A model generated the notes under the pieces. That model was not told where the DNA came from. It searched no databases and worked only from the letters and a program-made list of their open reading frames with translations. Below, in pieces: positions 39,764-63,926 of a DNA stretch of 64,000 nt. Each line of letters opens with the position of its first letter. Positions within the stretch are counted from its first letter, which is position 1. Made by a program: the position numbers and the translations under genes. This DNA comes from an uncultured Candidatus Saccharibacteria bacterium (GTDB lineage Bacteria; Patescibacteriota; Minisyncoccia; Phycocordibacterales; UBA9973). Location: the NCBI GenBank assembly GCA_964505155.1, contig CAZDGL010000001.1, forward strand, positions 71,058 to 135,057. Reading direction: 5' to 3'.

Positions 39764-39938
39764 ATATTCCTTTATTTAGTCACGTAAATTGCGGCTTCAC
39801 CGATAAAAATAAACGGCCATAGAACTCCTCTCAGTGGAGACATAGGACGTGTGCAATTCCAATAAACGTCCCATTGTTCCGAGAATGTATGCGACGAGAA
39901 AAACCTTACCTGTAAATAATTCCATCACTTTAATCCTT

Positions 39939-40205: not shown

Positions 40206-40485
40206 GATTGATCATTTTCGACCTTGAGGTTTTGATTTCCTGCTTTGGTCTTCCCCATCGAGTTTCTACGAAACCACATTTCCAAGCTAGAGAATTCAAA
40301 TGTCGTGAGGTAGGAACTTCACCGTGGTGTTCGATCATGTAAGAAATGATATTGCCTATCAGATCCTTCTGAATCTGGTTGACAGATTTCTTAGCTTTAC
40401 CATATTCATCCCACGGATATACATCTGCCGCACCAGCTTCTACGAGCCGCTTCATGGCAATGAATGGGGAAACACGTTTAGGCAT
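40150..40485 (-). CDS. hypothetical basic protein
   Basis: 111-aa ORF. Confidence 0.3.
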   Translation of the reverse strand: MPKRVSPFIAMKRLVEAGAADVYPWDEYGKAKKSVNQIQKDLIGNIISYMIEHHGEVPTSRHLNSLAWKCGFVETRWGRPKQEIKTSRSKMINRAVKRARRSYHELQANSM

Positions 40486-40496
40486 TAAAAAACCTC

Positions 40497-40538
40497 CAGA
40501 TAGGATACAATAGACTATCTGGAGGTTCTTGTCAACGC
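40497..40538 (-). terminator. rho-independent terminator
   Basis: Minus strand CCTCCAGATAG-loop-CTATCTGGAGG (10-bp stem) followed by TTTTTT, just past the 40550-41113 ORF. Confidence 0.45.
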
Positions 40539-40549
40539 ATAACCCGCAT

Positions 40550-41113
40550 TTATGCGCTGATTCGGTTTTCGGACTTCTTCTTGTAGAGGAGTCGATAGTC
40601 CTTCATTCGGTCGGCATCGGGCTCGAAACCCTTGTCGGTCAGATATCCACGAATATCAATGGCTCGACCATCGACGGACGTCTCGACCACACCGCGATTG
40701 ACATCGGTCAGACTGGTGAAGCGGAACCGAAGCGTAGATCCATCAGGGAATTCGATGTAGGTGGGATTTGCGTTCAATTCCTGAACCTGTTCGTAGTAGG
40801 TTACAGGCTTCGGCTTAGGAGCCTTGACGCGGATTTCGTTGGGATTGGAATAGGTAGTGATAGGCTTGGAAGAGGTAGACTTAGGCTTGGTAGACACTGC
40901 AGGCATTGTGATTTCCTTTGTTCGTAGATCATTGAATGGAACCCAATCTCTCAACATACGTGCATCATCAGGAGAATCTGGAACAAAATATCCATCAATA
41001 CTCATTTCTGAGATTGCTTTCTTCTGAATCATATAATTACCACGACCAGTATTATAGACTGATACATTTTTGACAAGACCGTTGGGAAGAATTTGGGGAA
41101 TATACTGAGGCAT
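40550..41113 (-). CDS. hypothetical protein
   Basis: 187-aa ORF. Confidence 0.35.
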   Translation of the reverse strand: MPQYIPQILPNGLVKNVSVYNTGRGNYMIQKKAISEMSIDGYFVPDSPDDARMLRDWVPFNDLRTKEITMPAVSTKPKSTSSKPITTYSNPNEIRVKAPKPKPVTYYEQVQELNANPTYIEFPDGSTLRFRFTSLTDVNRGVVETSVDGRAIDIRGYLTDKGFEPDADRMKDYRLLYKKKSENRISA

Positions 41114-41138
41114 AGTTTCACTCCTTCATGTTGAATAT

Positions 41139-41216
41139 TGGTGCTTCCTGTCAGACTCGAACCGACACTATATAACGCTCTCGACGTTACTCCTCTACCG
41201 TTTGGGATAAGGAAGC
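41139..41216 (-). tRNA. tRNA-like gene with abnormal anticodon loop TCGAGAG (C at position 33; nominal anticodon GAG)
   Basis: CCA encoded; acceptor GCTTCCT/AGGAAGC; anticodon arm TAACG-TCGAGAG-CGTTA; short variable region; T-loop TTCGAGT. Confidence 0.4.
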
Positions 41217-41221
41217 AATGA

Positions 41222-41298
41222 TGGTACCCCTAGTCGGATTCGAACCGACAACCTCCTGATTCTAAGTCAGGCACCTCTACCGATTGGGCTACAGGGGC
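41222..41298 (-). tRNA. tRNA with anticodon TAG (Leu-type) on a class-I body
   Basis: CCA encoded; anticodon arm CCTGA-CTTAGAA-TCAGG; 5-nt variable region AGGTT; T-arm GTCGG-TTCGAAT-CCGAC; A73. Confidence 0.5.
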
Positions 41299-41377
41299 AT
41301 ATAGATTGAAGTGTTTCTTCACAACATCGAAAGCTGAGAAGGTTTCTTCAAACTTTCGTACTGGTTCACCTAAAGGC

Positions 41378-41608
41378 TTATCGTTGGGAAGTGCTCTCAT
41401 TAATAAGTGCCGTTGGCTTACCTGATTTCACATACTCTACATTATCATAATCTGCAAGCAATTTCTTGCATTCGTTCAGAACCTTATTAGAGAAGCCATA
41501 TACGTAGAACGTGTTATTGGCAACTCCTAAAGTCACTTCGGTACAATACGATCCGAAGCGAGACTCAATGGCATCAATAAGACTAGACAAATCAATTATC
41601 TTGCTCAT
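41378..41608 (-). CDS. hypothetical protein
   Basis: 76-aa ORF. Confidence 0.3.
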   Translation of the reverse strand: MSKIIDLSSLIDAIESRFGSYCTEVTLGVANNTFYVYGFSNKVLNECKKLLADYDNVEYVKSGKPTALINESTSQR

Positions 41609-42246
41609 TGATGCTCCTATTTAGTAAGAATCGACCTTTATACCATCCTTCTGGTATTTGATCAAGTTTTTTTATCTTCTTATTTTCAGTTCCGTTTGTG
41701 ATCCACATAGATCCGAACTGAGAATTCAACGAACCTTGATTTTTGGGTTTAGACATCTTCAGTTTGGTTTCTTCAGAATGTCGTTTACCTGTCCATTGAT
41801 GTTCAAAACTAATATATCTAGTTTTTAATCCTTTTTGTACAGATTTATTAAAATTTAGTACCCAAGTTTCATCATTTTGTCGAAGATTTTTTTGTGCTTT
41901 ATGTCCTTTAACTTGATTTTCTTTTGAAAATCCTATGTAATTAGTTAATCCATTAGAATTGATGTACCCAAATCCACCTTTACCACCGGGACAAATATTG
42001 TAGGTATCATCACGATTACAAAAATCTTCGGTTACTATCTCAGCTTCTTTAGCTGACATATCTTCTAGATTATCAAACTGGTAGAGAATCTCTCGTTGAA
42101 AATTCTCAATACCGTATTTCTTAATGGCACGTCGAAGATGCTTACCTGATCCCAAGTATCCATCATTCAGATCAGAAGTCTGATGTTGTCCAATATAGAT
42201 CTTTCCATTAATAAGGTTAGTGGTTTGGTATACAATGTAGTGCAAA
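41592..42246 (-). CDS. GIY-YIG homing endonuclease
   Basis: (TTG-start) HYIVYQTTNLINGKIYIGQH GIY-YIG motif; C-terminal FGSMWITNGTENKKIKKLDQIPEGWYKGR module; decayed paralogue at 45085-45405. Confidence 0.75.
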
Positions 42247-42253
42247 TTAGGAA

Positions 42254-42297
42254 ACTCCTGAATACCCTTTACTATTATTTAGGTATTCAGGAGTTTC
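42254..42297 (-). promoter_or_regulatory. conserved 13-bp-stem hairpin in 5' leader of GIY-YIG gene (copy 1)
   Basis: AACTCCTGAATAC...GTATTCAGGAGTT with loop ..TTTACTATTATTTAG..; second copy with identical loop core at 45404-45448. Confidence 0.4.
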
Positions 42298-42302
42298 AAT
42301 GA

Positions 42303-42390
42303 GCACCAGACAGGATTCGAACCTGTGACGAGGGTTTCCCCTATCCGATTAAGAGTCGGAGCCGTTCGGCCAACTACGGTAACTGGTGCA
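42303..42390 (-). tRNA. class-II (long variable arm) tRNA with anticodon CTT (Lys-type); no encoded CCA
   Basis: Acceptor GCACCAG/CTGGTGC, U73; anticodon arm TCCGA-CTCTTAA-TCGGA; variable arm AGGG-GAAA-CCCT; T-arm ACAGG-TTCGAAT-CCTGT. Confidence 0.45.
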
Positions 42391-42392
42391 TA

Positions 42393-42755
42393 TTAGTCAT
42401 CGATATATAGCTCAGAAGTTTTGAGTGAGTCAACCACTTTCATTTCTTCAATAATATTGAATGCAGCTATCGCATCCGAAAGCTTCGTGATTGCATCAAA
42501 CAATGCGTCTGGACCCGGATTAACGAGAATGAATGCATGATCCGATTCCGAGGATGTGATGGTGATTGAAAACTGGTTGGTTCTCAATATCTCACATTCA
42601 AACATAAATCCAGCATTGATGATCTCGTCTGCCTTCTTGCAAACATCTTCCCTAATCGGAAGAAGCTCATCAGAAGAATGTCCATACGGCATTTCGTAAA
42701 ACGTAGCAGGAATTACGAAATTATTGTGGTCACCAGAATAGAAAAAATGTGGCAT
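42393..42755 (-). CDS. hypothetical protein
   Basis: 120-aa ORF. Confidence 0.35.
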   Translation of the reverse strand: MPHFFYSGDHNNFVIPATFYEMPYGHSSDELLPIREDVCKKADEIINAGFMFECEILRTNQFSITITSSESDHAFILVNPGPDALFDAITKLSDAIAAFNIIEEMKVVDSLKTSELYIDD

Positions 42756-42779
42756 TTCTCACTCACTTTCATTTCAAAA

Positions 42780-42832
42780 TGGAGTACCCGGTGGGATTCG
42801 AACCGACGTGGAGGTTACCCTCTGTGGATTAA
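42780..42832 (-). pseudogene. tRNA remnant (T-arm + 3' acceptor + CCA only)
   Basis: TGG-A-GTACCCG-GTGGG-ATTCGAA-CCGAC on plus, but no complementary 5' acceptor; adjacent 8-bp hairpin GTGAAGTG/CACTTCAC instead of D/anticodon arms. Confidence 0.25.
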
Positions 42833-42883
42833 TGCGTGAAGTGCCTCAACACTTCACTGATAAGTCCACCGCTATCGACCTAC

Positions 42884-43192
42884 TCAGCCAACCGCACGTA
42901 TTTTTGCATACGTTCCATCTATACGACATTTTTCAATATGGCATGATGTACATAACAACTGACATTTTTGAACTTCTACCCAAAATATCTTTTCAGAAGC
43001 CGAACATGCTTCGGCTATTGACATTATTTTAGTGTGACGCTCTATATGATCAAATTCAAGATTTTCTTTAGTAGAACATTTTACACATTTTCCACCCAGA
43101 AAATCAACTGCTTTCTCTCGTCTTTTCTTCCACCTCTTCTTCATATATTCATTCATATATGAATTATATACATTTTTATCTTTATGTGGCAT
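42884..43192 (-). CDS. HNH homing endonuclease
   Basis: CVKCS...EFDHIERH...CTSCHIEKC HNH/zinc motifs; 102 aa. Confidence 0.65.
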   Translation of the reverse strand: MPHKDKNVYNSYMNEYMKKRWKKRREKAVDFLGGKCVKCSTKENLEFDHIERHTKIMSIAEACSASEKIFWVEVQKCQLLCTSCHIEKCRIDGTYAKIRAVG

Positions 43193-43249
43193 TCATACCT
43201 GTGGTAGAGTGATCTTCATTTACCGACCACTCTACCACAATAAGCTTAT

Positions 43250-43795
43250 CTACGCAACCTTTTTCTTTCTGTTCTTGCGCTTAGCTGTGTTTTTACCAAA
43301 CTCTCTGAATCTGTCAGCAGCAAAGGATGCTGCCCACGCATCAGGCTTAGCTAGAGGAACCACGTTGCAGACACCCTTGATATAACCAATGGCTTCCTGC
43401 AGAACCACGCTTGAACCATACTTCCGGTTCGTGTTGACGTCGATGTGAACCTCGATTTCACGATCCTCAATTACGTCCGCAAGCTGAAGATACATCTCAG
43501 CAGTCTTGTAGACTTCGTTCATGAGTCTCATCTTTGGTTCGGACTTCTTCTTATCGTAATCGATCTCCTCTACGATCTTACCCCAGACGGAGCAACCGTG
43601 ATTACCATCGATGTGGACGACAACAGCAGTAGTATAACGTGCTACCCACTTTTCATCCTTACGAAATCGATATGAGTCAGTACCGATGTAGATCTTGGTC
43701 TCCTTGGACTGACGGTCGATGAAATCCTTTAGATCTTGTATATCGTCAATTCTCCTCATTATATCTCTCCTTTCATGGAGATTATTTAGCTCCAA
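43250..43795 (-). CDS. putative RNase H-like fold nuclease
   Basis: 181 aa; KIYIGTDSYRF...VVVHIDGNHGC...EVHIDVNTN acidic clusters; assignment tentative. Confidence 0.25.
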   Translation of the reverse strand: MELNNLHERRDIMRRIDDIQDLKDFIDRQSKETKIYIGTDSYRFRKDEKWVARYTTAVVVHIDGNHGCSVWGKIVEEIDYDKKKSEPKMRLMNEVYKTAEMYLQLADVIEDREIEVHIDVNTNRKYGSSVVLQEAIGYIKGVCNVVPLAKPDAWAASFAADRFREFGKNTAKRKNRKKKVA

Positions 43796-43927
43796 TTCAC
43801 ACGATTGAGATCAGCGAACCAATCATCTCCCATACCATGGAAGAACACCTGATTACCACGAAGCTTGTGCATATGTCAACCTCCTTATTGATTTGAATCA
43901 ATATCTTAGATTCCAACAAACGTCAAG

Positions 43928-44005
43928 TGGTGCTCCCAACCGGACTCGAACCGATATCACTCTCTTACGAGGAGAGGGTTTTGCCACAATTATCACTATA
44001 GGAGC
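43928..44005 (-). tRNA. tRNA-Thr (CGT)
   Basis: CCA encoded; acceptor GCTCCTA/TGGGAGC; anticodon arm CTCTC-CTCGTAA-GAGAG; T-loop TTCGAGT. Confidence 0.6.
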
Positions 44006-44157
44006 ATATATGATCCATATAAGGGGCAATAATCGGGTTATTAGCTCAGATATGAACCATTATAATGGTGCGTTAGATCTGAGTTGAACAGATACCTCTG
44101 GTTTTTCAGACCAGCGAACAGTCACCGGATATTCGACTAACGCGTATTCTTAAATAA

Positions 44158-44234
44158 TGGTGCAGCAGAAGGGATTCGAACCCTCATCGTCCTGATTGAA
44201 AGTCAGGTATCCTAAGCCATTAGACGACTGCTGC
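44158..44234 (-). tRNA. tRNA-Glu (TTC)
   Basis: CCA encoded; acceptor GCAGCAG/CTGCTGC; anticodon arm CCTGA-CTTTCAA-TCAGG. Confidence 0.65.
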
Positions 44235-44284
44235 GTTTAACTTATCTTTCCACTTACGAATATACCGCATGAATAGAATTGCTT

Positions 44285-44491
44285 TCATATAATCACCTTA
44301 TGTCTTTTAGTATCTATGTATAATCTCCATTCATGATCTTCAATACTATGTAACTCAACTGGATTTCGTCTTTTCAATTCTTCGTATATTTCATTATATG
44401 TTGGTTCGTGATCCCAAATTAAAGGAGCAAATCCATCATCCCATTGATAGTTTGGTGTATAAGCTTTAGATATCCAAATATTCATATACAA
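44285..44491 (-). CDS. hypothetical protein
   Basis: 68-aa ORF between tRNAs. Confidence 0.25.
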   Translation of the reverse strand: MYMNIWISKAYTPNYQWDDGFAPLIWDHEPTYNEIYEELKRRNPVELHSIEDHEWRLYIDTKRHKVII

Positions 44492-44514
44492 ATCACCTTT
44501 TCTAATAAAAATGG

Positions 44515-44589
44515 TGGTGCTCCTAGACAGGATCGAACTGTCTCCTTCTGATTGAGAATCAGATATCCTATCCGGTAGACGATAGGAGC
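44515..44589 (-). tRNA. tRNA-Glu (CTC)
   Basis: CCA encoded; acceptor GCTCCTA/TAGGAGC; anticodon arm TCTGA-TTCTCAA-TCAGA; T-loop TTCGATC. Confidence 0.55.
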
Positions 44590-44598
44590 ATTTTTTAG

Positions 44599-44675
44599 TG
44601 GAGCCTACGGAGAGATTCGAACTCCCGACTTATCCGTTCGAAGCGGATATTTCTAGTCCACTGAATTACGTAGGC
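44599..44675 (-). tRNA. tRNA-Arg (TCG)
   Basis: CCA encoded; acceptor GCCTACG/CGTAGGC; anticodon arm TCCG-CTTCGAA-CGGA. Confidence 0.65.
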
Positions 44676-44683
44676 AATTAACT

Positions 44684-44759
44684 TGGTGGTTCTACCAGAA
44701 TTCGAATCTGGACCTTCGGTTTCGTAGACCGATGTTCTTTCCGGTTATACTATAGAACC
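44684..44759 (-). tRNA. tRNA-Arg (ACG)
   Basis: CCA encoded; acceptor GGTTCTA/TAGAACC; anticodon arm TCGGT-CTACGAA-ACCGA. Confidence 0.7.
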
Positions 44760-44765
44760 AAAAAA

Positions 44766-44841
44766 TGGCGACCCTAACCGGTAACGATCCGGCCTTCACG
44801 GATTGACAGTCCGCACCCTTCACCATGACGGGAATAGGGCC
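44766..44841 (-). tRNA. tRNA-Asp (GTC)
   Basis: CCA encoded; anticodon arm GCGGA-CTGTCAA-TCCGT; unusual T-loop ATCGTTA. Confidence 0.65.
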
Positions 44842-44851
44842 ATTTTAAATT

Positions 44852-44936
44852 TGGTGCGTTGTCACGGTAACGATCCGTGCGAGCCTGAGGCATCCGTTTT
44901 ACAGACGGAACAGTCTCCTTAACTGTATACCAACGC
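44852..44936 (-). tRNA. tRNA-Tyr (GTA), class II
   Basis: CCA encoded; anticodon arm TCCGT-CTGTAAA-ACGGA; variable arm GCCT-C-AGGC; T-loop ATCGTTA. Confidence 0.65.
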
Positions 44937-44945
44937 ATATTCAAT

Positions 44946-44982
44946 AAAAAACCTTCGTATCTGTTTAAGGATACGAAGGTTG
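44946..44982 (-). terminator. rho-independent terminator upstream of the Tyr/Asp/Arg tRNA run
   Basis: Minus strand CCTTCGTATC-loop-GATACGAAGG then TTTTTT. Confidence 0.4.
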
Positions 44983-45084
44983 CTGATTTCTCAAGACAAA
45001 CGTTCTCGTATCCCGTGGTTAGGGCTTATCTTCCTCGAAGCGATAGAGTTTGCGAATAAACATGTCTTGGTTCTTTCTTTGTTA

Positions 45085-45405
45085 AACTAATCTAAATTGT
45101 TTGATCATAGTACGATTATATCCGCTGTTTGTCAACCCTAAAGATCGTACAATATCAGCATTTGTTTGATTCGTTTGAATCGCTTCGTGAATTTCTTTGT
45201 CGGTAACATCCGACAACTTGCGAAATCCTTTATTACTATATTTAGGATCCTTTTTCAAGCGTCCTAATGAAAAATTAGAAGGAATTTCATCATTTTTTGA
45301 TATTTTTATTTCTGTCGAACCGTCATTGATCCAAACAGTTCCATATTGGGAATTTCGTGCACCTTAGAGATTGGTAGTTTGGTAGACGATGTAGTGCATT
45401 TAAGG
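45085..45405 (-). pseudogene. decayed GIY-YIG homing endonuclease (paralogue of 41592-42246)
   Basis: ATG-HYIVYQTTNL then stop after 11 codons; downstream frame still encodes ...YGTVWINDGSTEIKISKNDEIPSNFSLGRLKK... matching the C-terminus of the intact copy; catalytic core deleted. Confidence 0.55.
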
Positions 45406-45448
45406 GAGTCCTGATTACCGTTTACTATTATTTAGGTAATCAGGACTC
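45404..45448 (-). promoter_or_regulatory. conserved leader hairpin (copy 2) upstream of GIY-YIG pseudogene
   Basis: GGAGTCCTGATTACC...GGTAATCAGGACTCC, loop GTTTACTATTATTTAG shared with copy at 42254. Confidence 0.4.
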
Positions 45449-45456
45449 CAAGGGTT

Positions 45457-45524
45457 GCGGGAACTGGATTCGAACCAGTGTCTCTTGGTAATGAGCCAAG
45501 CAAGGAACCTCTCCTCTACCCCGC
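45457..45524 (-). tRNA. minimal tRNA-like gene, anticodon CAT, truncated D-arm, no CCA (probably degenerate)
   Basis: About 69 nt; acceptor GCGGGG/TCCCGC; anticodon arm CTTGG-CTCATTA-CCAAG; T-arm CTGG-TTCGAAT-CCAG; D-arm reduced to 3-bp stem/5-nt loop. Confidence 0.3.
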
Positions 45525-45575
45525 TATATATTTAGCATACTTATCTCACCAACAACCGAAAGTCAACATCTTTTT

Positions 45576-45950
45576 TCAGTTTGGGAGATCTTTTAAGTTT
45601 GGCACCCACATGTGCCGAGTGAAAACAAATTCGTATGAACCATCTAGTGAATGATTATCCATCCATCCGACATTCAGACCGCTCTCGTATCCAGAAAACT
45701 CCTCAGAGATATCGAATACGTATGTTCCTAGTGTTATACCCACTTTTGTGAGCAATTGCAAGCGAATTGTTCGGGCTTCGAGGAATTTAAAGGACTGCTG
45801 CTCAGTGATAGTCCGAACAATATAAATCTTCTTGTTGACAAAATCCACACTAACAGCATGTGAATAATGGTCTTCTACATCATCATAATAGATGACATAT
45901 CCATTACTTAGAATGCTCTTGTTATCATATTCGTCAAAGCTCTTAGTCAT
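45576..45950 (-). CDS. hypothetical protein
   Basis: 124-aa ORF. Confidence 0.35.
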   Translation of the reverse strand: MTKSFDEYDNKSILSNGYVIYYDDVEDHYSHAVSVDFVNKKIYIVRTITEQQSFKFLEARTIRLQLLTKVGITLGTYVFDISEEFSGYESGLNVGWMDNHSLDGSYEFVFTRHMWVPNLKDLPN

Positions 45951-46293
45951 CGATTATCTCCCATTTGGTAAATTCAAACAAATACTCTCCGTGAAGAAGT
46001 TCATCCTTGGTATACCACGAAGCGCAGATCTCAGTAGGAGTAGCGCTCTTGATATAAAAACGATAATGCAACCCTTCGGTCTCATCTTCACCATTCAGGT
46101 AAATCAAATCAATGATCTTGGCATCCAGAAAATCCATATTAGGACGAGTCTTTACCAGACGAGTCAGGGTTATCTGTTTGACCAAAAAATTGATATGAAT
46201 GTAGTTCGTAGTCGGATCCGATTCTCCATCGTATTCTACGATGAATTGATCGGACATTTGATCTTCGTTACGCAGCGAACCAGATTTCTTCAT
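45943..46293 (-). CDS. hypothetical protein (paralogous fold to 45576-45950?)
   Basis: 116-aa ORF; both neighbours share ...HINFL/VDFVNKKI..LTRL/IVRTITEQ... pattern. Confidence 0.35.
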   Translation of the reverse strand: MKKSGSLRNEDQMSDQFIVEYDGESDPTTNYIHINFLVKQITLTRLVKTRPNMDFLDAKIIDLIYLNGEDETEGLHYRFYIKSATPTEICASWYTKDELLHGEYLFEFTKWEIIDD

Positions 46294-46570
46294 TCAGGCT
46301 CGCATAGGTTTCTGGTAGGTCTCGAAGTCCAGCATGGATCTCAGAATGGCAATTAGAACAGAGAAGAATACACTTCCGTAGCCCTTCGGCAATCCCTGAT
46401 GGACTTAATCCCTTGGAAAAGGCTTTTGATAGATTGAATTCTTTGGTGGTGGGATCTATATGGTGAAAATGAAGTGCATGGACCGTTCTATTGTAGCCAC
46501 AACACTGGCATCCACCTCCCATAGATTCTACTGCACGTATTTTTAGAGGTTGACGCTTGACTTGTCTCAA
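46268..46570 (-). CDS. HNH homing endonuclease
   Basis: CQCCGY...HHIDPTTKEFNLSKA...CSNCHSEIH. Confidence 0.65.
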   Translation of the reverse strand: MRQVKRQPLKIRAVESMGGGCQCCGYNRTVHALHFHHIDPTTKEFNLSKAFSKGLSPSGIAEGLRKCILLCSNCHSEIHAGLRDLPETYASLNEEIWFAA

Positions 46571-46640
46571 TATCTACTCCGAGTTTAGTACTCGGAGTTA
46601 TTTATCTTATCTTGTCAATGGTTTACATCATTTTGAAAAT

Positions 46641-46715
46641 TGGTTCCCTCGAAACGATTCGAACGTTTACCTTCATATTCAGAGTATGAAAATCTGCCAA
46701 TTAATCTACAAGGGA
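46641..46715 (-). tRNA. tRNA-Gln (CTG)
   Basis: CCA encoded; U1-A72 start as in bacterial tRNA-Gln; anticodon arm TCATA-CTCTGAA-TATGA. Confidence 0.6.
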
Positions 46716-46729
46716 TCATAATCTAAATT

Positions 46730-46805
46730 TGGTTCCCCTTGGTGGATTCGAACCACCATCGCATGGATTCAAAGGCCAGCATTCTACCTGTTAAACTAGA
46801 GGGGA
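46730..46805 (-). tRNA. tRNA-Gln (TTG), weak anticodon stem
   Basis: CCA encoded; canonical 76-nt register gives loop CTTTGAA (TTG) but anticodon stem has C27.T43 and C31.T39 mismatches. Confidence 0.45.
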
Positions 46806-46823
46806 ATATTCTCTATCACTTCA

Positions 46824-56194: not shown

Positions 56195-56815
56195 ATGCCT
56201 TATACATATCTCATTGGTTGGACATCACTTAATCTTTGGTATTATGGTGTTCGATATTCAGTTAAAGCACATCCAACTGATCTGTGGGTAACCTATTTTA
56301 CTAGCAGTAAAAGAGTTAAACAGTTACGTGAAAAATATGGTGAACCTGACGTAATTCAGATAAGAAAAACATTTGGAGATCCACATAAAGCGAAAGATTG
56401 GGAAGATAAAATTCTTCGTCGTATGAATACGAAGTTTGATTCTAAATGGATTAATCAAACCATGAATGATAGTTTTCGTGGAATAGTTGTCCCTTGGAAC
56501 AAAGGACTAAACAAAAATAATTCAGAAAAAATGAAAGAGATTGGAAGATCCATATCCAAATCATGTAAAGGTCGACAGTCACCACATAAAGGAAAACTCG
56601 TATCAGAGGAGTCTAAAATAAAAAACTCGTGGACTCAAATAATTGAACATAATCCATCACTACAATTTAAAACGTATTCCGAGTTTGCTGATGATGTTAT
56701 ACGTCGATATCAGCAAACTCGGAAAGGTCCGTATTCATTGGGAACTTTTTATAAAGTTGATGGTGGAACCATCAAAAGGATCATTCATCGTTACGAAGCA
56801 ACCATGAATTGCTGA
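56195..56815 (+). CDS. GIY-YIG-type homing endonuclease
   Basis: MPYTYLIGWTSLNLWYYGV (YLI..9aa..YYG) then NUMOD3-like PWNKGLNKNNSEKMKEIGRSISKSCKGRQSPHKGK; GAGGAG RBS; AT-rich. Confidence 0.5.
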   Translation: MPYTYLIGWTSLNLWYYGVRYSVKAHPTDLWVTYFTSSKRVKQLREKYGEPDVIQIRKTFGDPHKAKDWEDKILRRMNTKFDSKWINQTMNDSFRGIVVPWNKGLNKNNSEKMKEIGRSISKSCKGRQSPHKGKLVSEESKIKNSWTQIIEHNPSLQFKTYSEFADDVIRRYQQTRKGPYSLGTFYKVDGGTIKRIIHRYEATMNC

Positions 56816-57884
56816 TAACTTTGAATGAGATTGACGGATCCAATGTACTCTTAAAAACTACACCTTCGCGGGTTTTTGCAAAAAGTGACGGTCCTTCTGC
56901 AAATTTAAGAAGATCATCAAGAGTTTCAAACTCGGAAAGTTTATGAATTCCAATAATTGGAGCATGTTCAAGCTCCAAACGCTCACACATAATCTGTCTT
57001 TCGTATGCATTATAATATCGTCCAAAATCGATATTGAAAATATCAAATACAGCGAAACGCTGATCGTTGATATTTTCTTTATTTCCTTGGATACCTACAC
57101 CATAAAGTTCACCCTGAATGGCAAAGGAGAATCCACATTCCTGCAGCTTCCGTTCCAGATCGAGCTTGCGAGCAACCTTCCAGAAGGAATTCCCTTCGGA
57201 CTCTTCGAGATCGAGGTTGCGTGAGCAAACACCGAACCGATCAACCGGACCCTTTTTGTTATAGACAGTCATGCTGGAACCGTCCAGCTTGATAGTCGCT
57301 TCAAAAGGATGGTTGGAATAATCACGCTTGATCTTGTTGAAGATGTTCTGGACTCGTTCCTGATCAGTCTTCGGAATGAAGCTAGGGAAGTTACCGCGAG
57401 CAACACCAGCAAGGTGTGCAGCGATAGGCTTCTCGTACTTCTTGACACCGAGAACGTCAGTCAGATCCAGACCTTCATCAATCGGTTCGTCGTCAATCTG
57501 AAGAGTGAAGGTATCTGAATTTATAAATCTATGTCCATCCAGCAGTCCACCTTCCTTCAGGATTTCTCTCAAAGGAAGAATGAGTCCCTGAGAAACCTGA
57601 CCACGAAGCTTGATCGTCTTGAGACGGAACCCTTCACCGTTCACCGAACGTGCAGCAGAGACGTAGCATTTGTCTCGCAGAAATTCGAATTCAGGACGAA
57701 CTGGAAGTAGGGAGTCAATACAAAAATAGACAACGAGATCTCCAATTTGAAAATTGTTGGATCGTTGCGTAACTAATTCCCATCCTTTTACTGTCGCACA
57801 AACAATATTATCCGCACCCGGAATCTCCCTGATATCCAAGATGCGTTCAACTGTTGCAAGCTGACGATTAATTTCACTACCCAT
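56781..57884 (-). CDS. RNA ligase with N-terminal tRNA-binding (Myf/Trbp111-type) OB domain
   Basis: N-terminus VERILDIREIPGADNIVCATVKGWELVTQRSNNFQIGDLVVYFCIDSLLP matches tRNA_bind OB pattern; nucleotidyltransferase motif I IKLDGSSM; 367 aa. Confidence 0.55.
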   Translation of the reverse strand: MGSEINRQLATVERILDIREIPGADNIVCATVKGWELVTQRSNNFQIGDLVVYFCIDSLLPVRPEFEFLRDKCYVSAARSVNGEGFRLKTIKLRGQVSQGLILPLREILKEGGLLDGHRFINSDTFTLQIDDEPIDEGLDLTDVLGVKKYEKPIAAHLAGVARGNFPSFIPKTDQERVQNIFNKIKRDYSNHPFEATIKLDGSSMTVYNKKGPVDRFGVCSRNLDLEESEGNSFWKVARKLDLERKLQECGFSFAIQGELYGVGIQGNKENINDQRFAVFDIFNIDFGRYYNAYERQIMCERLELEHAPIIGIHKLSEFETLDDLLKFAEGPSLFAKTREGVVFKSTLDPSISFKVISNSWLLRNDE

Positions 57885-57918
57885 TAGAGTTAGACTCCTT
57901 GTTACCTAAATAGACATA

Positions 57919-58701
57919 ATGACACAAACGAAAATTAACCAACCCATATTTTACATATATGCCTATTACGATCCAGATACGGATATTCCGTTCTATGTCG
58001 GAAAAGGTCATGGTCGAAGACATCTATCACATCTCCGAGAAGTACGCAACGGTACAAATAAGAAAAACCATAAAATTCATAAAATCAAAAAAATGATAAA
58101 TGAAGGAAAGGATCCTATTATTCGGTTTCTTGAAGAAAATCTTTCGCATGAAGAATCAATAATTCGTGAAAAGTATTGGATTGCTCATTTTGGACGAATA
58201 GATTTAGAAACGGGTTCTTTATGTAATATGACGGAAGGTGGTGACGGTCGTGTTCAATGGTCTAAATCAGAACGTGACAAAATATCAAAACTCAATACTG
58301 GAAAAATTTCCGTCAAAGATAAAGACGGAAATAGGTTTCAAGTAGAAAAAGATGATCCTCGATGGGTTTCTGGTGAATTGGTCGGTGTAGCTACTGGACA
58401 TTCTTCAAATTCAACTGGAAAACTTACTGGATACATTATGGCTAAGGATAAAGACGGGAATCGATATCGTGTTAAGAAAGATGATCCTCGATGGATTTCT
58501 GGTGAATTAGTTGGATTAATGAAGGGAACGAAACCTCATCCTAATATAATTAAAGCCGCACAGGAACGCAAAGGGTTTAAACGTTCGCGTGAATCAGTTG
58601 AACAAGGTGCGGCAAAACTCCGAGGTATTCCTAAGAGTGAAGAACACAAGAAAAAGTTATCAGAAGCTACTAGAAATTTTTTCAAAAATAAACGTTCATA
58701 A
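57919..58701 (+). CDS. GIY-YIG homing endonuclease with duplicated DNA-binding module
   Basis: FYIYAYYDPDTDIPFYVGKGHGRR; internal about 120-bp tandem duplication (DKDGNRFQVEKDDPRWVSGELVG / DKDGNRYRVKKDDPRWISGELVG). Confidence 0.75.
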   Translation: MTQTKINQPIFYIYAYYDPDTDIPFYVGKGHGRRHLSHLREVRNGTNKKNHKIHKIKKMINEGKDPIIRFLEENLSHEESIIREKYWIAHFGRIDLETGSLCNMTEGGDGRVQWSKSERDKISKLNTGKISVKDKDGNRFQVEKDDPRWVSGELVGVATGHSSNSTGKLTGYIMAKDKDGNRYRVKKDDPRWISGELVGLMKGTKPHPNIIKAAQERKGFKRSRESVEQGAAKLRGIPKSEEHKKKLSEATRNFFKNKRS

Positions 58702-59207
58702 TGTAATGATCTTGCGTTCAATATCACTCATAGACGAATACTCCCAATATTAAAATTCGGATCGAGTCCGATGTTCACCAGTGAATAAATCTGAAGAGCC
58801 AATTCCAGATCGATATCCATATCCAGAAAGGTTTCGGATGCCGTATAAAGAACTTCACATATGCGCGACTTTTCTAGTTCTGTAAAGCTATCTTCAACTT
58901 CATGCAGTCGCTTTAGAAGTCGGTCCCTTTGAATATCACTCATTTTCCATATCTCCTCACTGGGACAATCCCATCTTCCCAAAATCCATCTGAAAGTCTA
59001 CTAGGACGATACTCTTCAATTGTCAATCGATAAAGTGCATTATCCACATTTAACCACGATAAACGTTTCCATTCGTCATAGGCATCTTGATAAACATCAA
59101 ATGGACCAATAAATACAGATTTGAAATCTTTTGTCCAACGAAATTCAAAATCTCGGTATTCACCACCAACAATATAAAACATCAGAGAGTATCTCCAAAG
59201 AAATCAT

Positions 59208-59642
59208 TTAAGTATCCATCCAGCTATCGTGATTACATTCAGGACACTTGGGGACTAACGTGATCTTATTGTGAATTTCGGCATCGAACGGATCCGCAGT
59301 CAACTGAGTGGTTGAGAAATCATGTTCCTTACAATAATAGGTCTTGATAGGATTTTCACCCTTGATGAACCGAGCAACATTTCCCGGTCCCACAATGTAC
59401 TGATCAGCATATGGTTGACCGAGTTTTGAATTCTCGACGTGAGAAAACGCTACAAACTTACCTTTTCCATCCATCTTCTGAATGTAGGTAGTCTCATTAC
59501 CGACAACATATCGGTAATCTTCACGGTTTACTGAGAGTCTACGATAGTGCGACATAAGTATCCTCCGGAATCCAATCAATGACGGAATCAAACCCTTCGT
59601 CCGTAGTCGGACGCTCATAGGTCGATTGCATGTTGTAGACAA
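59208..59642 (-). CDS. hypothetical protein with CPECNHD zinc motif
   Basis: 144-aa ORF overlapping kinase gene end. Confidence 0.3.
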   Translation of the reverse strand: MSTTCNRPMSVRLRTKGLIPSLIGFRRILMSHYRRLSVNREDYRYVVGNETTYIQKMDGKGKFVAFSHVENSKLGQPYADQYIVGPGNVARFIKGENPIKTYYCKEHDFSTTQLTADPFDAEIHNKITLVPKCPECNHDSWMDT

Positions 59643-60021
59643 CGTCCATCGGAACCTTCTTATCCCGAAGCTTCATCCGACGTTCAATCTCCCAGATAGG
59701 AGTCTCAAACACGATAGCAACCTTGGTCCAGTCCTTCGGAATTGCAGCGAGCTTGCGCTTCCGAGACTTCACAGTCAAGTTGGTCTGATCCCAATAGAAG
59801 GAGGTTCCGTTTCGGACGCATTCCTGCACCTTCTCGTTCATCACCTTGGTTGCCCAATCAATGCAATCCTTGAAGCAATCATTGTAATTGGAATCATGCG
59901 AACGAGCGTATTCCTCGATGGTGGAGTCCGTGTCGACTACCACCTTGTTGGGAATCTTGGAAAGAAAGGTGGATTTCCCTGAGCAAGGGAGACCCACCAA
60001 CATGAAAAGCGTCTTGTTCAT
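59539..60021 (-). CDS. polynucleotide 5'-kinase (P-loop, Pnkp kinase-domain-like)
   Basis: LVGLPCSGKSTF Walker A at N-terminus as in T4 Pnkp kinase domain; 160 aa, no phosphatase domain. Confidence 0.55.
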   Translation of the reverse strand: MNKTLFMLVGLPCSGKSTFLSKIPNKVVVDTDSTIEEYARSHDSNYNDCFKDCIDWATKVMNEKVQECVRNGTSFYWDQTNLTVKSRKRKLAAIPKDWTKVAIVFETPIWEIERRMKLRDKKVPMDVVYNMQSTYERPTTDEGFDSVIDWIPEDTYVALS

Positions 60022-60250
60022 ACTTTTTAATCTACCTCACATAATTATTAAAGTCAAGATGGACTCTTATAATTAACAGGAAAACACAAAATATTATCTT
60101 CAGTTGGTGATCTCCACCATTCAGAAGAATGCAATAGTATAGCTTCTTTAGTTGCTACACATTCTTCCATAGTATCAAACCTCATAAGAGAATCTCCTTT
60201 GGTATATCCACCACCATATACCATCCACAATATGAAAAAAGTTTTCAGCA

Positions 60251-60925
60251 TTATTCTGCATCCTCTATGTTATGATATTCCCACCGCAAGTTACCCCAGA
60301 GGACTCGGTTCTCCTCAATCTTGCGATTGGAATTTACCGACTTCTTGAGTCGCTCGATTACCAGTTCCCGAATGACATTCTCGTCCACGTCTTTGTCCCA
60401 CAATGCGAACATGAAGGATCGAACCATATCAGAAGTCCCATCGGTTGCGGTATAAATCGCAAAATCCTTCTTAGTAGCAAACCGGCATTTGAAGTTCCAG
60501 AATTTGGAAGAAATCTGGTTCTTGAAATCCGTGACGTGCATCCAGAATTTAGTCGTGAACCTACGAAGCTTATCCGCGTCCTCCTTGTAGAGGATAGGGA
60601 GAAGGTCGTCAATACCCTGATTGATGATGCATTCGAGCACCGCTTTCTCCGAGGTAATCATGCTCTTGGCTTTGTGGATTGCACAGTATGCATCCGTCTT
60701 GACCTTGAGCATGTGACCGTCATCAAATCGGATAACCCAACCTTCACCTTCCTGCTGAGTACGAGCAAGCTCCATGATGTTCTCGACCGTACCCTCATAA
60801 GCTCGCACGACTGGAATATTAAATTTTTTTCCAATATCCATCAGATTCATCATAAATAACCTTTGAGTGGTGTTCATTTTTAGGAGAAAATTTTGTATTA
60901 TGTTTATTTTTATATAGACCCCCAA
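60251..60925 (-). CDS. rnlA: RNA ligase 1 (RnlA), C-terminal half
   Basis: EGEGWVIRFDDGHMLKVKTDAYCAIH aligns with T4 Rnl1 [25 protein letters not shown]; continues T4 Rnl1 colinearly from where 61458-62066 stops. Confidence 0.55.
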   Translation of the reverse strand: MGVYIKINIIQNFLLKMNTTQRLFMMNLMDIGKKFNIPVVRAYEGTVENIMELARTQQEGEGWVIRFDDGHMLKVKTDAYCAIHKAKSMITSEKAVLECIINQGIDDLLPILYKEDADKLRRFTTKFWMHVTDFKNQISSKFWNFKCRFATKKDFAIYTATDGTSDMVRSFMFALWDKDVDENVIRELVIERLKKSVNSNRKIEENRVLWGNLRWEYHNIEDAE

Positions 60926-61492
60926 ACAAATTTACCTTTTTACATTGGCAAAGGTTCAGGATATCGATTATATGATCATATCAAAAATCATACATCATCT
61001 TCTAAGAGAGTGCAAGATAAAATTTCAAATCTTCGTTCCAAAAATTTGGATCCATTGATTGAAATTTATAAAGATGAATTAACCGAAGATGAAGCTTACG
61101 ACCTCGAAAAAACATTGATTTCTAAGTATGGAAGAAAGGGATATGATCAGAATGGAATATTAATGAATATATGTGAAGATTATAGACCACCTAAAAGAGG
61201 CAAATGGACTGAGGAATCGAAAAAGAAACAATCACTTTCGATGAAAGGTAAAAATAAAGGTAAAGTGCCATGGAATAAAGGAAAGTCTCATAAGAGAGGT
61301 GCACAAACTCCACAACAAACTATACTAATAATGAAAACTAGACTTAAAAAATTAATGGGTATTATTTTAAGTCATTACGATGAAGTTACAGAATTCACTA
61401 TATCCGAATCAAAACGTCTAAAAATAATACCCAAAACCTCACCAATTTCAATGAAAGTTATCTCTCAGTATACGGGAGATATTCTCCCGTAA
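60893..61492 (+). CDS. GIY-YIG homing endonuclease inserted antisense between the two rnlA halves
   Basis: MYYVYFYIDPQTNLPFYIGKGSGYR; K-rich NUMOD-like tail; strongly AT-rich; overlaps both rnlA pieces by about 35 nt. Confidence 0.75.
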   Translation: MYYVYFYIDPQTNLPFYIGKGSGYRLYDHIKNHTSSSKRVQDKISNLRSKNLDPLIEIYKDELTEDEAYDLEKTLISKYGRKGYDQNGILMNICEDYRPPKRGKWTEESKKKQSLSMKGKNKGKVPWNKGKSHKRGAQTPQQTILIMKTRLKKLMGIILSHYDEVTEFTISESKRLKIIPKTSPISMKVISQYTGDILP

Positions 61493-62066
61493 AAGTATTT
61501 CTTATTGCTGTCAAAATAAGATCGTGCTCTGAATAATTTACAACAATTCTATTAGATGGTCCTATCCATTCAAATATAGGAGTTAAATTATTCTCAAAAC
61601 ACCACTGAGCTAATTCAGTATATTGTGGTCTGGTGGAAACAAAATCCTCAACCATATCGGAAAATCCGTCAGTGACACCCATTTTGGTACCCCAACGAAT
61701 CTTCTGTTCATAGGCATTCCAAAGTGGAGTCACCATGGATCCATCAAGCTTTTCCAGAATGACGTGGTGCTGAGTGAAATCGATGTTCTCGATCTTCGTC
61801 TCTTCACGTTCGTTCAGGTTGAAAAACTTGTGGAGTCGACGTGCGAGAGGCTTACCCTCGTTATCGAATACAATCCCTCGGCATTCCCGAAGGATTGCTT
61901 CCATAGAATCACCGCGAGCATCAAGGAAGGTCTTGTCAGTCGCGAATGAATAGTTCGCTACCTGATACCAATCCCTGTCCGCGATAAAAAATTCGGTTCG
62001 TTCAGACTTATCAATAGCTGAACGAACCGTCTCAATGTTCATGATATAAGGGAACTTGTAGTTCAC
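61458..62066 (-). CDS. rnlA: RNA ligase 1 (RnlA), N-terminal half with motif I
   Basis: LRECRGIVFDNEGKPLARRLHKFFNLNE...VILEKLDGSMV...FEWIGPSNRIVVNYSEHDLILTAIRNTFTGEY parallels T4 Rnl1 [31 protein letters not shown]...ILTKEDGSLV...[32 protein letters not shown]. Confidence 0.7.
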   Translation of the reverse strand: MNYKFPYIMNIETVRSAIDKSERTEFFIADRDWYQVANYSFATDKTFLDARGDSMEAILRECRGIVFDNEGKPLARRLHKFFNLNEREETKIENIDFTQHHVILEKLDGSMVTPLWNAYEQKIRWGTKMGVTDGFSDMVEDFVSTRPQYTELAQWCFENNLTPIFEWIGPSNRIVVNYSEHDLILTAIRNTFTGEYLPYTER

Positions 62067-62070
62067 TGTC

Positions 62071-62652
62071 TTATTCTCCGAACTTTTCCTTGAGCTTCAG
62101 ATAAGTCTGATATTCGGGATCCGATTTCTTCTGGTATTCATTCAAATAAGGGATCCAGTGCTTAGGAATCGTACCAGTAATTCCTGCAGTCCACGCTGCA
62201 ATTTCGGCTTCCAGTGCACCTGCACCATAGTCAGTCTGAGAACCAGAATGACCAGCGTCAGAACGGAGCGTCTTAGCTTTCTCACTAAGAAACTCAACCA
62301 GTCCCAAATGGTCATTAGACCAAGCTTCGATCTTGTTATTCACTGTGGTCTCCTGTGGTTTAGTTTCAACCACAGTCTTACTCGACTCTTTGGTTTTTGT
62401 CAACCCCTGCTCATTCCGATATTTGTAGGGATCAATGAAATAACATTCTCCGGTATGTTCATCAAACCCTTCCACACTCAGAGCTTGGAAGTAATAATCA
62501 GGAGCAAATCCATTCACTCGATCCGGAAGACTGTCATTGGTTCGGAAATAAGCATCAACGGCTTCCTGAGCGGTTTTATAGTGATAAGTCTCGTGCTTCT
62601 GACCCCATCCGCGTACGGATTCTACAAAATTAATTCTGAAGTTGTTTGGCAT
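62071..62652 (-). CDS. hypothetical protein
   Basis: 193-aa ORF. Confidence 0.3.
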   Translation of the reverse strand: MPNNFRINFVESVRGWGQKHETYHYKTAQEAVDAYFRTNDSLPDRVNGFAPDYYFQALSVEGFDEHTGECYFIDPYKYRNEQGLTKTKESSKTVVETKPQETTVNNKIEAWSNDHLGLVEFLSEKAKTLRSDAGHSGSQTDYGAGALEAEIAAWTAGITGTIPKHWIPYLNEYQKKSDPEYQTYLKLKEKFGE

Positions 62653-63082
62653 TTTCGATCTCCTCTTTGATTAGGTCTACGATATAACCATGAAACAAAT
62701 CAAAAGTAAAGTCCCCTAGCTTCTCTCGGAGGAAAAAAGCTCTGGTTTGCATCCGATCATATCGAAGAGCCAAATCAAAACCATTCTGGAGGTGTTCTTC
62801 CTGAGCCGAATTCTCGGACTTCAGACGAAGAACCTCATCTCTGAGATCGTCGTTCTCTTTTTCAAGCTCATCAGATATCGATTGATATTCTTTGATATCG
62901 TATTCGAGAGTTTTATACTTCTGTCGAATCTCGGCATTTTCCTTCACAAGGTCTTTATTGGAAACAACCTTCTGTAATTCCCATGCAGCGTCCGAAGCTA
63001 GCTGTTGGACAGGGAGCATTGATGCCCACACATCCTCATCCCGAATATTTCGGAGCTTCTCAATTAGTAGATTTATGTCCAT
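62630..63082 (-). CDS. coiled-coil protein
   Basis: 150 aa, E/K-rich heptads. Confidence 0.3.
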   Translation of the reverse strand: MDINLLIEKLRNIRDEDVWASMLPVQQLASDAAWELQKVVSNKDLVKENAEIRQKYKTLEYDIKEYQSISDELEKENDDLRDEVLRLKSENSAQEEHLQNGFDLALRYDRMQTRAFFLREKLGDFTFDLFHGYIVDLIKEEIENAKQLQN

Positions 63083-63398
63083 TTTTCTGCAACTCCAATT
63101 CGATGTCTATCTCTTCTTTCAAAATTCGACGAAATTCTTCATCTACGTCAATTCCCATAGATTTCATTTTTGATCGAAGTTGATTAATGGTATAGTGTTT
63201 CTTCAAATCATCGAAGTCCATTGTCTCTAATCCATTCCAAAGCTTCAGTACATGATACAACTAGTTTGAAAAACTCATCAGGAAGAAGCTGATATCGTAG
63301 ATCTTTCTCAATACCACCTTTTTCGTTATACCATTCCATGACGAGAGTCCCTCGGAAACCACTTTCGTCCTTCCAAGGGATAATTCTCATTGTTCGCA

Positions 63399-63926
63399 TC
63401 AAAAATTCCCTTCACGAACCTGTAGACATCGAACACCATTCTTTCGGTACATTTCTACCACCTGAGTCCGGTCTTCAAATGCCATGAAGATATCAAATTC
63501 CTCCTGAAGCTTCTTCAGGATTTCTTCCTTAACAATAAAGTCCTGTCGATGATCCTTTTCAGGACGCATCAGCAACCGATGTGGAACCACCTCATTTTCA
63601 ATGAGCCAGTCCATCGTCTTATCCCGATATGCAGGAGTACCTTCTCGTCCGGTCACAATGATATTAATGAACCCAGACGAATCAAACAGCATGAATAGTC
63701 CGCACATATCGTCGTAGGCTTCGTCCTTATCGGACTCGGCATAGAAGGCTTTCCAGTTTTTTGGCTTATTTCGTACGTGGTGGACTCGGTGCTCGATGTT
63801 CGCAAGAGTTCCGTCTAAATCAAAAATGCACGCAAGTGGCTTCACATAATCCAGAACATTGAACGAAGACATTACGGATCTGGTATCAACAGCAAAATCA
63901 GTATCAAGCATCATTATTCCTCTCAC
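63399..63926 (-). CDS. HAD-family phosphatase (polynucleotide 3'-phosphatase candidate, Pnkp phosphatase-domain-like)
   Basis: IFDLDGTLA DxDxT motif I near N-terminus; 175 aa. Confidence 0.5.
   Translation of the reverse strand: MRGIMMLDTDFAVDTRSVMSSFNVLDYVKPLACIFDLDGTLANIEHRVHHVRNKPKNWKAFYAESDKDEAYDDMCGLFMLFDSSGFINIIVTGREGTPAYRDKTMDWLIENEVVPHRLLMRPEKDHRQDFIVKEEILKKLQEEFDIFMAFEDRTQVVEMYRKNGVRCLQVREGNF

Follow-up and report, generated by a model that had tools for sequence, protein, structure and literature searches.

Can an RNA ligase whose gene has been broken in two within its catalytic domain still be a working part of an RNA repair module? The question is raised by a 64,000-nucleotide (nt) stretch of DNA (GenBank assembly GCA_964505155.1, contig CAZDGL010000001.1, positions 71,058 to 135,057 of the forward strand), which is called the window here and gives the coordinates used throughout. 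It belongs to an uncultivated T4-like phage with a genome of approximately 151 kb, the structural genes in the window including baseplate proteins of T4-like type. An initial annotation had placed four tRNA-repair genes in this DNA, namely a P-loop polynucleotide kinase (PNK), a HAD phosphatase, an Rnl1-type RNA ligase and a second ligase. Nearly all long open reading frames (ORFs) between 56.7 and 64 kb were found on the minus strand, and each of the noted repair ORFs was present there. All four enzymes exist and their families hold, the family identities being near-certain. What did not stand was the Rnl1 gene, given as one gene at 60251-62066: it consists of two ORFs parted by a GIY-YIG endonuclease gene on the opposite strand, a split that had gone unnoticed. 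As a whole, the region is quite likely a module for healing and sealing RNA ends, of the T4 Pnkp/Rnl1 type, with a recently split Rnl1. The interrupted gene was composed of the following features.

61458..62066, minus strand: N-terminal half (N half) of Rnl1, 202 amino acids (aa), GTG start; motifs I and III with the adenylylation lysine K106 (KLDGS) and E166; ends in ...GEYLPYTER and the stop codon
60893..61492, plus strand: GIY-YIG homing endonuclease, 199 aa, TTG start with AGGAG 6 nt upstream; LEM-3_GIY-YIG and GIY-YIG domain; guanine-plus-cytosine (GC) content 0.30
60251..60853, minus strand: C-terminal half (C half) of Rnl1, 200 aa, starting MMNLMDIGKKFNIPVV..., with AAAGG 6 nt upstream; motifs IV and V (EGWVIRF...KVKTD) and a probable Rnl1 C-terminal domain

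The N half matched positions 1-155 of the 227 positions of Pfam RNA_lig_T4_1, residues 33-194 of T4 Rnl1 and positions 51-193 of TIGR02308. The C half matched T4 Rnl1 residues 207-289, TIGR02308 positions 210-363 and phrog_562 positions 207-369 (E=2e-29), the latter two matches covering the expected Rnl1-specific C-terminal domain, and its score of 20.9 bits for Pfam T4_Rnl1_C was below the 27-bit cut-off. K106 and G109 of motif I, E166 of motif III, EGWV of motif IV and KVK of motif V aligned with K99, E159, E227 and K240/K242 of the T4 enzyme. As K106 and motif III reside in the N half, and motifs IV and V with the probable C-terminal domain in the C half, the active site is divided between two polypeptides. 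The split lies inside the catalytic nucleotidyltransferase (NTase) domain, so that activity requires reassembly. The break comes after residue 202, where a stop codon (61458-61460) is followed by an insert of approximately 604-607 nt and then by a new start; no Rnl1 residues were lost at the junction, which is seamless when compared to intact homologs. In antisense, the endonuclease gene and the N half share 35 nt at their 3' ends. The C half most likely starts with the ATG at 60853, which has AAAGG in front of it at 6-nt spacing, and a CACCAyTCAAAG motif followed by ATG was conserved upstream of the C half in two other split alleles (L008 and L014, described below); we read this motif as a putative ribosome-binding site. 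An identical 200-aa C-half product had already been called in a public protein collection (P0284).

The same arrangement was found elsewhere. In L008 and L009 and in the IMG/VR contig L014, an N half, an antisense orthologous GIY-YIG gene and a C half followed one another at the same codon and in the same orientation; the endonuclease orthologs of L008 and L014 were 53% and 57% identical to the window copy, respectively, and in L014 a stand-alone kinase again lay near the split Rnl1. L012 carried a different, SegE-like GIY-YIG gene at the same Rnl1 codon. In L010 and L011, the kinase, the two Rnl1 halves and a ligase of the Rnl5 family (see below) were contiguous without an endonuclease, with a gap of 45 nt at the split, and the split point was located approximately 10 residues further downstream. 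These two loci stand for a phage contig of ~155 kb that was represented in 28 contigs of the collection. Among 108 N-half homologs of split length, R63, K80, K106, D108, G109, K128 and E166 were invariant (T4 residues matching the N-half invariants are R54, K75, K99, G102, K119 and E159), and the protein ended 0-4 residues past the tyrosine of GEYLPY in 96 of them. With pairwise identity as low as 53% at the median, this invariance of catalytic residues points to selection acting on the halves.

The 108 split-length proteins, of about 200 aa, came from 120 N-half hits, and a predominance of split alleles was considered and rejected. A word-indexed search favours hits of query-like length, so that 108/120 is not a prevalence; indeed, a 112-aa Rnl5 query returned short proteins only and missed its own full-length parent. 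When the C half was searched with index-free HMMER, the 150 nearest 50%-identity cluster representatives included 24 stand-alone C halves (16%) and 100 full-length proteins. In isolates, Rnl1 was in one uninterrupted piece in all 60 best cultured-phage records, and a close ortholog of the Rnl1-resident endonuclease was not found among cultured phages. No report of a split Rnl1 was found in the searchable literature, which was limited in coverage.

The age of the split could be judged from a sister phage, to whose metagenomic contigs a kinase homolog of 83% identity pointed. The sister contig L005 has the order HAD gene, 150-aa ORF, 187-aa ORF, Rnl1 and kinase, with 37 nt between the last two, and its Rnl1 is uninterrupted (399 aa; L005:3290-4489). 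Comparison by blastn gave nucleotide identities of 80% over 62121-61566 and 86% over 60811-60542, and 61565-60812 was unmatched. The diverged part corresponded to a distinct tract.

60812..61620, no strand: low-GC island of ~810 bp, comprising the endonuclease cassette and the Rnl1 flanks that diverged from the sister; presumed co-conversion tract

The GC content of the island was ~0.30, compared with 0.44-0.47 over the rest of Rnl1. In 25-residue windows, identity to the sister Rnl1 was mostly 0.72-1.00 as far as residue ~145 and again over residues ~226-295, and dropped to 0.32-0.56 between residues ~150 and ~220. Over residues ~150-220 the split allele of L008 was equally close or closer than the sister L005; TGEYLPY and GK(K/R)FNIPVV were common to the window and L008, where the sister has DGDYMPY and EEYGVDVV. 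The pattern fits a recent insertion in which a donor of lower GC content contributed the cassette together with co-converted Rnl1 flanks, because homing with co-conversion of the flanks predicts both a low-GC island and a switch from sister-like to donor-like identity. The GIY-YIG cassette would thus have been inserted on the opposite strand between NTase motifs III and IV, recently making Rnl1 a split allele, and the split allele would bring a stop codon for the N half together with a ribosome-binding site and an ATG for the C half. The split Rnl1 illustrates the fragmentation of an enzyme gene within its catalytic domain by a homing endonuclease. It is a natural and recent case with an intact sister allele, so that donor and recipient states are both available.

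Split alleles that recur with invariant catalytic residues, sometimes without the endonuclease, make a working two-piece ligase likely. We consider it fairly probable that the halves come together without a covalent bond to form an active ligase, as their conservation suggests and as NrdA of phage Aeh1, likewise split by an endonuclease, does. If so, an enzyme family much used in the laboratory would have a split site of natural origin, and the short list of endonuclease-fragmented phage enzymes would extend beyond genes of DNA metabolism.

The remaining enzymes of the module were encoded as follows.

63399..63926, minus strand: stand-alone HAD 3'-phosphatase, 175 aa; homolog of the T4 Pnkp phosphatase domain with the DLDGT nucleophile motif
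59539..60021, minus strand: stand-alone P-loop polynucleotide 5'-kinase, 160 aa; assigned by AAA_33, fold search and the kinase part of phrog_505
56781..57884, minus strand: intact nick-sealing RNA ligase of the Rnl5 type (DraRnl/NgrRnl); N-terminal OB domain and nucleotidyltransferase domain

The HAD protein matched Pfam HAD_PNKP (PF25109) over the entire profile (positions 1-143 of 143) with 100.8 bits against a cut-off of 27.6 (E=9e-29). Against the T4 Pnkp phosphatase domain of known structure (5uj0, E=1.5e-16; 1ltq residues 158-301) it aligned as far as the C-terminal residue, the motifs FDLDGT, TGRE and VKEE being in register with T4 Pnkp residues. Matches in PHROGs were to phrog_415 and phrog_505 ('polynucleotide kinase'), the best being phrog_415, a separate family. 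The 175-aa ORF matched the HAD domain alone and the kinase gene is located ~3.4 kb away, so the phosphatase has no fused kinase. Its proposed identity as a stand-alone Pnkp-type phosphatase was thereby borne out by the profile match and the end-to-end domain alignment, which left no case for a sugar phosphatase.

The kinase ORF matched Pfam AAA_33 (E=1.6e-17) and, among NCBIfam profiles, those for O-phosphoseryl-tRNA kinase (PSTK), bacterial Pnkp and PNK-3'Pase; a sequence search against solved structures gave a marginal match to the Pnkp1 kinase domain (E=0.09). A structural model was built with AlphaFold2 on an alignment of 40 homologs (predicted local distance difference test score, pLDDT, 91; predicted template-modelling score, pTM, 0.85). 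When the model was searched against the Protein Data Bank (PDB) with Foldseek, ranks 1-17 were occupied by mammalian PNKP, the Pnkp kinase of Clostridium thermocellum (CthPnkp) and kinase-domain structures of two Mucorales fungi. The template-modelling (TM) scores against the CthPnkp kinase domain were 0.73-0.75, with root-mean-square deviations of 2.7-3.1 A and 26-28% identity. Pnkp1, PSTK and T4 Pnk came after these top matches, and adenylate kinase first appeared at rank 18 with lower TM-scores. The P-loop GLPCSGKST is located at the N-terminus, and G10, P12, G15 and K16 were invariant among the 40 homologs; the invariants of the family comprised the P-loop, D32, WDQTN, R87, R115/R119 and EGF, with D32, R115 and R119 invariant or nearly so. 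D32 and the lid arginines R115/R119 presumably occupy the positions of Asp35 and Arg126 in T4. The product of 59539-60021 thus models as a polynucleotide 5'-kinase and not as an adenylate or deoxynucleoside monophosphate kinase, in agreement with its earlier description as a stand-alone P-loop polynucleotide kinase.

The second ligase aligned over its full length with NgrRnl of Naegleria gruberi (PDB 5cot residues 5-336, E=3e-63) and exceeded the equivalog cut-off of NCBIfam TIGR02306 (DRB0094; 172.6 versus 151.15 bits), and therefore belongs to Rnl5, a family distinct from Rnl1. It contains the Pfam domains PHA02142 OB (PF21189) and RNA_ligase NTase (PF09414). Like DraRnl of Deinococcus and NgrRnl, it has the OB-plus-NTase layout and the motifs KLDGSS, EG(V/L)VFK and SFK(V/A)ISN; unlike NgrRnl, it has an insertion of ~25 residues in the OB/NTase linker. 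Characterised Rnl5 enzymes seal 3'-OH/5'-PO4 nicks in duplexes with an RNA 3'-OH strand and differ in substrates from characterised Rnl1 enzymes (PMC4408790). The ligase function, which had been called duplicated, is thus diversified instead, Rnl1 and Rnl5 being separate families with different known substrates. The Rnl5 was closest to that of phiM7, M12, M19 and N3 (46.6% identical), phages that carry Rnl1 too, and Rnl1 and Rnl5 also occur together in BUCT-ZZ01.

The Rnl5 gene has also been a target of endonucleases. It was split in the variable OB/NTase linker in the sister phage (L006:2675-4206) and in two other long phage contigs (L020:5001-6782 and L021:4001-6086), the splitting gene being a GIY-YIG endonuclease on the same strand (L006, L020) or a LAGLIDADG endonuclease (L021). 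As Rnl1 is split and Rnl5 intact in the window, and the opposite holds in the sister, the endonuclease occupancy of the two ligase genes is reciprocal. Whether this extends to a general rule seems to us evenly balanced: Rnl1 would occur in nature as a two-subunit enzyme, its active site put together from a lysine-adenylate half and a half with motifs IV/V and the specificity domain. It would be spread between phages by GIY-YIG endonucleases with flanks that give the stop, the ribosome-binding site and the start, and would outlive the endonuclease. Both ligase genes of the phage group, Rnl5 at its OB/NTase linker, would then be hit by endonucleases again and again, with working two-piece ligases as the result. 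In the window, two ORFs of low GC content (0.35-0.36) on the plus strand bracket Rnl5, and neither was matched in the DNA alignments of the sister contigs.

57919..58701, plus strand: free-standing GIY-YIG homing endonuclease directly upstream of Rnl5, on the opposite strand to it; LEM-3_GIY-YIG E=4.6e-11; GC 0.36
56093..56815, plus strand: low-GC ORF, candidate endonuclease, overlapping the last 35 nt of Rnl5; NUMOD3 E=0.034, below the cut-off; GC 0.35

The former was 32% identical to the endonuclease in Rnl1. The latter matched phrog_37840, for which no function is given, and its assignment as an endonuclease was not confirmed. Two candidate RNA-repair partners were seen next to related genes, both without a counterpart in the window: a HAD_SAK_2 phosphatase after the split Rnl5 (L021:6280-6858), and a DUF2828/DUF7788 protein adjoining the kinase (L010:2041-3477).

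The initial annotation had linked the repair set with a neighbouring group of tRNA genes, the two together as a possible counter to tRNA-targeting host defences.

38222..51022, minus strand: tRNA island (21 tRNAs) with a permuted tmRNA; ARAGORN, and Rfam tRNA and tmRNA_permuted matches

The 21 tRNA genes lie at 38222-50146 and the tmRNA at 50656-51022. The island reported beside the repair set is real, but the nearest repair gene is 5.8 kb off and adjacency is not conserved in relatives. In the mechanism modelled on the T4 paradigm and on characterised homologs, a host ribonuclease would leave 2',3'-cyclic-phosphate or 3'-phosphate and 5'-OH ends, of which the stand-alone HAD phosphatase would restore the 3'-OH and the stand-alone P-loop kinase would make the 5'-phosphate. 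Rnl1 would then join RNA broken in a single-stranded loop, for example the anticodon loop of a tRNA, Rnl5 would seal 3'-OH/5'-PO4 nicks in duplex RNA, and the island would supply replacement tRNAs in parallel. On balance we favour an anti-defence role, in which the targets in vivo would be tRNAs cut by host defences. A counter-defence by tRNAs and repair enzymes is plausible and has already been published for large phages, whose tRNA sets, together with ATP-dependent RNA ligases of more than one family, PNK kinases and HAD phosphatases, were interpreted as an answer to host attack on tRNA (PMC7824862).

Some features of the island and its surroundings were observed independently of this role. 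The tmRNA (50656-51022, minus strand) is of the permuted two-piece alphaproteobacterial type with the tag VADNDNVPAYARDLRVAA, which hints at an alphaproteobacterial host; the hint is consistent with the closest relatives of Rnl1, Rnl5 and the kinase. For the tRNA gene at 50072-50146 (minus strand), ARAGORN gave a four-base anticodon (tgtg) with no amino acid assigned, and Rfam gave a normal tRNA with 54.8 bits; the gene possibly encodes a tRNA-His whose loop is unusual, unless it is a miscall. A SegE-like GIY-YIG/NUMOD3 endonuclease is encoded within the island (41592-42245, minus strand), its N-terminal domain being 46% identical to the split-site endonuclease of L012. An R2K-clade ATP-grasp protein (53135-53926, minus strand; Pfam R2K_3 E=7e-14, R2K_2 E=9e-12) is encoded between the tmRNA and the repair genes.

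Several points weigh against a T4-type repair module with a functional two-piece Rnl1. Motif IV of the HAD protein is ED where T4 has DD, and the kinase is without an arginine three residues past the catalytic Asp, a position held by Arg38 in T4. No tRNAs were found within 8-12 kb of Rnl1 in B23, DSS3P8 or phiM7. DNA ends are substrates of Pnkp-type enzymes as well, and T4 Rnl1 (gp63) has a second role in tail-fibre attachment, so that tRNA repair is not the sole possible role. As for the ligase, the split falls in the catalytic domain, so that activity would depend on reassembly, and, as the insertion looks recent, the conserved halves in this phage could be inherited rather than maintained. 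The insertion may then have inactivated the gene, with the ORFs as a young pseudogene and Rnl5 alone sealing RNA, a course that would suit the recent look of the event (an intact sister allele and a sharp co-conversion tract), the break inside the catalytic domain and the presence of a second ligase. We nevertheless regard a dead Rnl1 as quite unlikely, since the donor-type flanks still code for conserved Rnl1 residues, at least 96 distinct split N halves retain every catalytic residue at the median identity given above, the C half has kept the conserved putative ribosome-binding site and ATG, and two-gene forms without the endonuclease persist on the ~155-kb phage contig with its 28 representatives. 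The substrates of Rnl5 and Rnl1 also differ in the characterised enzymes (PMC4408790). Removal of the insert at the RNA level, as a self-splicing intron carrying the endonuclease gene in antisense, would give one full-length Rnl1, and the junction at the protein level is indeed seamless. The insert RNA (607 nt) folded somewhat better than shuffled controls (z = -3.0), a value that is uninformative with only 20 shuffles. An intron is nonetheless highly improbable. Rfam searches of the window and sister contigs, at gathering thresholds and also at E<=10, gave no group I or group II match. The insert is taken up in full by the endonuclease ORF, which extends into the N half, so that a ribozyme core could not be accommodated. 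There is an in-frame stop behind the N half and, ahead of the C half, the conserved putative ribosome-binding site and ATG, and in L010 the gap measures just 45 nt.

The module might also be genuine but have a main job other than tRNA rescue, in the general processing of nucleic-acid ends (repair and replication of DNA or RNA-primed DNA), with Rnl1 as an attachment factor of tail fibres like T4 gp63. Besides the activity of the Pnkp family on DNA, this agrees with the mammalian DNA-repair enzyme PNKP among the top fold matches, with Rnl1 homologs annotated as 'RNA ligase and tail fiber protein attachment catalyst', with the phage being a T4-like myovirus, and with tRNA genes unlinked to the module in relatives. 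However, the T4 pathway as characterised is tRNA repair, and the linkage of kinase and Rnl1 has been kept across very different virion types. Large tRNA sets accompanied by RNA-repair genes are also a reported general pattern (PMC7824862), and we consider a main role outside tRNA rescue unlikely.

The surroundings of the repair genes were also surveyed. At the DNA level, the 8-kb region gave only short matches of 71-75%, within Rnl5, when compared to 50,697 phage records; therefore no close isolate exists. Promoter and terminator scans of the region were at chance level (21 found versus 21.1 expected, and 6 versus 5.7, respectively), and TATAAATA late-promoter motifs were not found within the repair region. 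Three ORFs without recognisable domains (62071-63082 and 59208-59558, minus strand) keep their positions in the sister L005 between the HAD gene and Rnl1 and directly after the kinase, and might be members of the module; their products measure 193 aa, 150 aa (a coiled coil) and 116 aa (with a CPEC motif). Missing from L005 were a 65-aa ORF between Rnl1 and the kinase (60054-60251, minus strand) and two ORFs of ~65 aa after the HAD gene (63084-63396). An 80-aa DUF4170 protein (58940-59182, minus strand; E=4e-16) is encoded between the kinase and Rnl5.

When compared with known systems, the region is an end-healing and end-sealing module in an unbundled form common in large phages related to alphaproteobacterial and cyanobacterial ones. 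With the tRNA restriction-repair pathway of T4 Pnkp (PseT) and Rnl1 (RnlA, gp63) it has three chemistries and their protein families in common: a 3'-phosphatase of the HAD DxDxT type, a 5'-kinase that has a P-loop and falls in the PNK clade, and Rnl1, in which motifs I, III, IV and V are present and the Rnl1-specific C-terminal domain is probable. It differs in that the kinase and phosphatase are separate proteins encoded ~3.4 kb apart, where T4 has one bifunctional protein, in that Rnl1 consists of two polypeptides, and in the additional Rnl5. The unbundling of Pnkp noted earlier was correctly described, but is not peculiar to this phage. Roseophage DSS3P8 has the same gene order, with HAD (gp099), five genes, Rnl1 (gp105) and kinase (gp106), the proteins being 38%, 40% and 37% identical to those of the window for HAD, Rnl1 and kinase, respectively. 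Unbundled modules of this HAD, Rnl1 and kinase kind are likewise those of Caulobacter phage Cr30, Sinorhizobium phages of the phiM12 type and Synechococcus phages B3/B23. Judged from hit coordinates, a stand-alone kinase gene lies no more than a few hundred bases from Rnl1 in RpAliso, B3/B23, RcXuper, DSS3_MAL1, Cr30, RHph_I1_18 and BUCT-ZZ01, and several of these kinases were already annotated as 'polynucleotide kinase'. In the DSS3P8, Cr30, phiM12-type and B3/B23 modules Rnl1 is uninterrupted, unlike the endonuclease-split gene of the window. The jumbo-phage systems surveyed by Iyer et al. in 2021 resemble the window in their large tRNA set, several RNA ligase families, PNK kinase and HAD phosphatase; in that survey the PNK-type HAD was 'usually fused' to the kinase, whereas it is stand-alone in the window and its relatives, and a genome of ~151 kb is not that of a jumbo phage (PMC7824862). 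The repair toolkit is an ordinary, already-described gene set; a further uncultivated T4-like phage that follows the documented pattern changes little, and the split Rnl1 is the noteworthy part.

Genes fragmented by free-standing homing endonucleases are known in nrdA of Aeromonas phage Aeh1 (by mobE), T4 39/60 (with mobA) and gene 43 of phage 25 (PMC2988022, PMC3045599). As in Aeh1 nrdA, an endonuclease ORF interrupts a conserved stretch of an enzyme gene found whole in relatives, giving two separately translated polypeptides. The function of the split NrdA was shown, whereas the split Rnl1 is known from its sequence. The window further differs from the Aeh1 type in that the target is an RNA ligase, in that the endonuclease gene is antisense and overlaps the upstream half, and in that the split point of Rnl1 recurs in many divergent phages and persists without the endonuclease.

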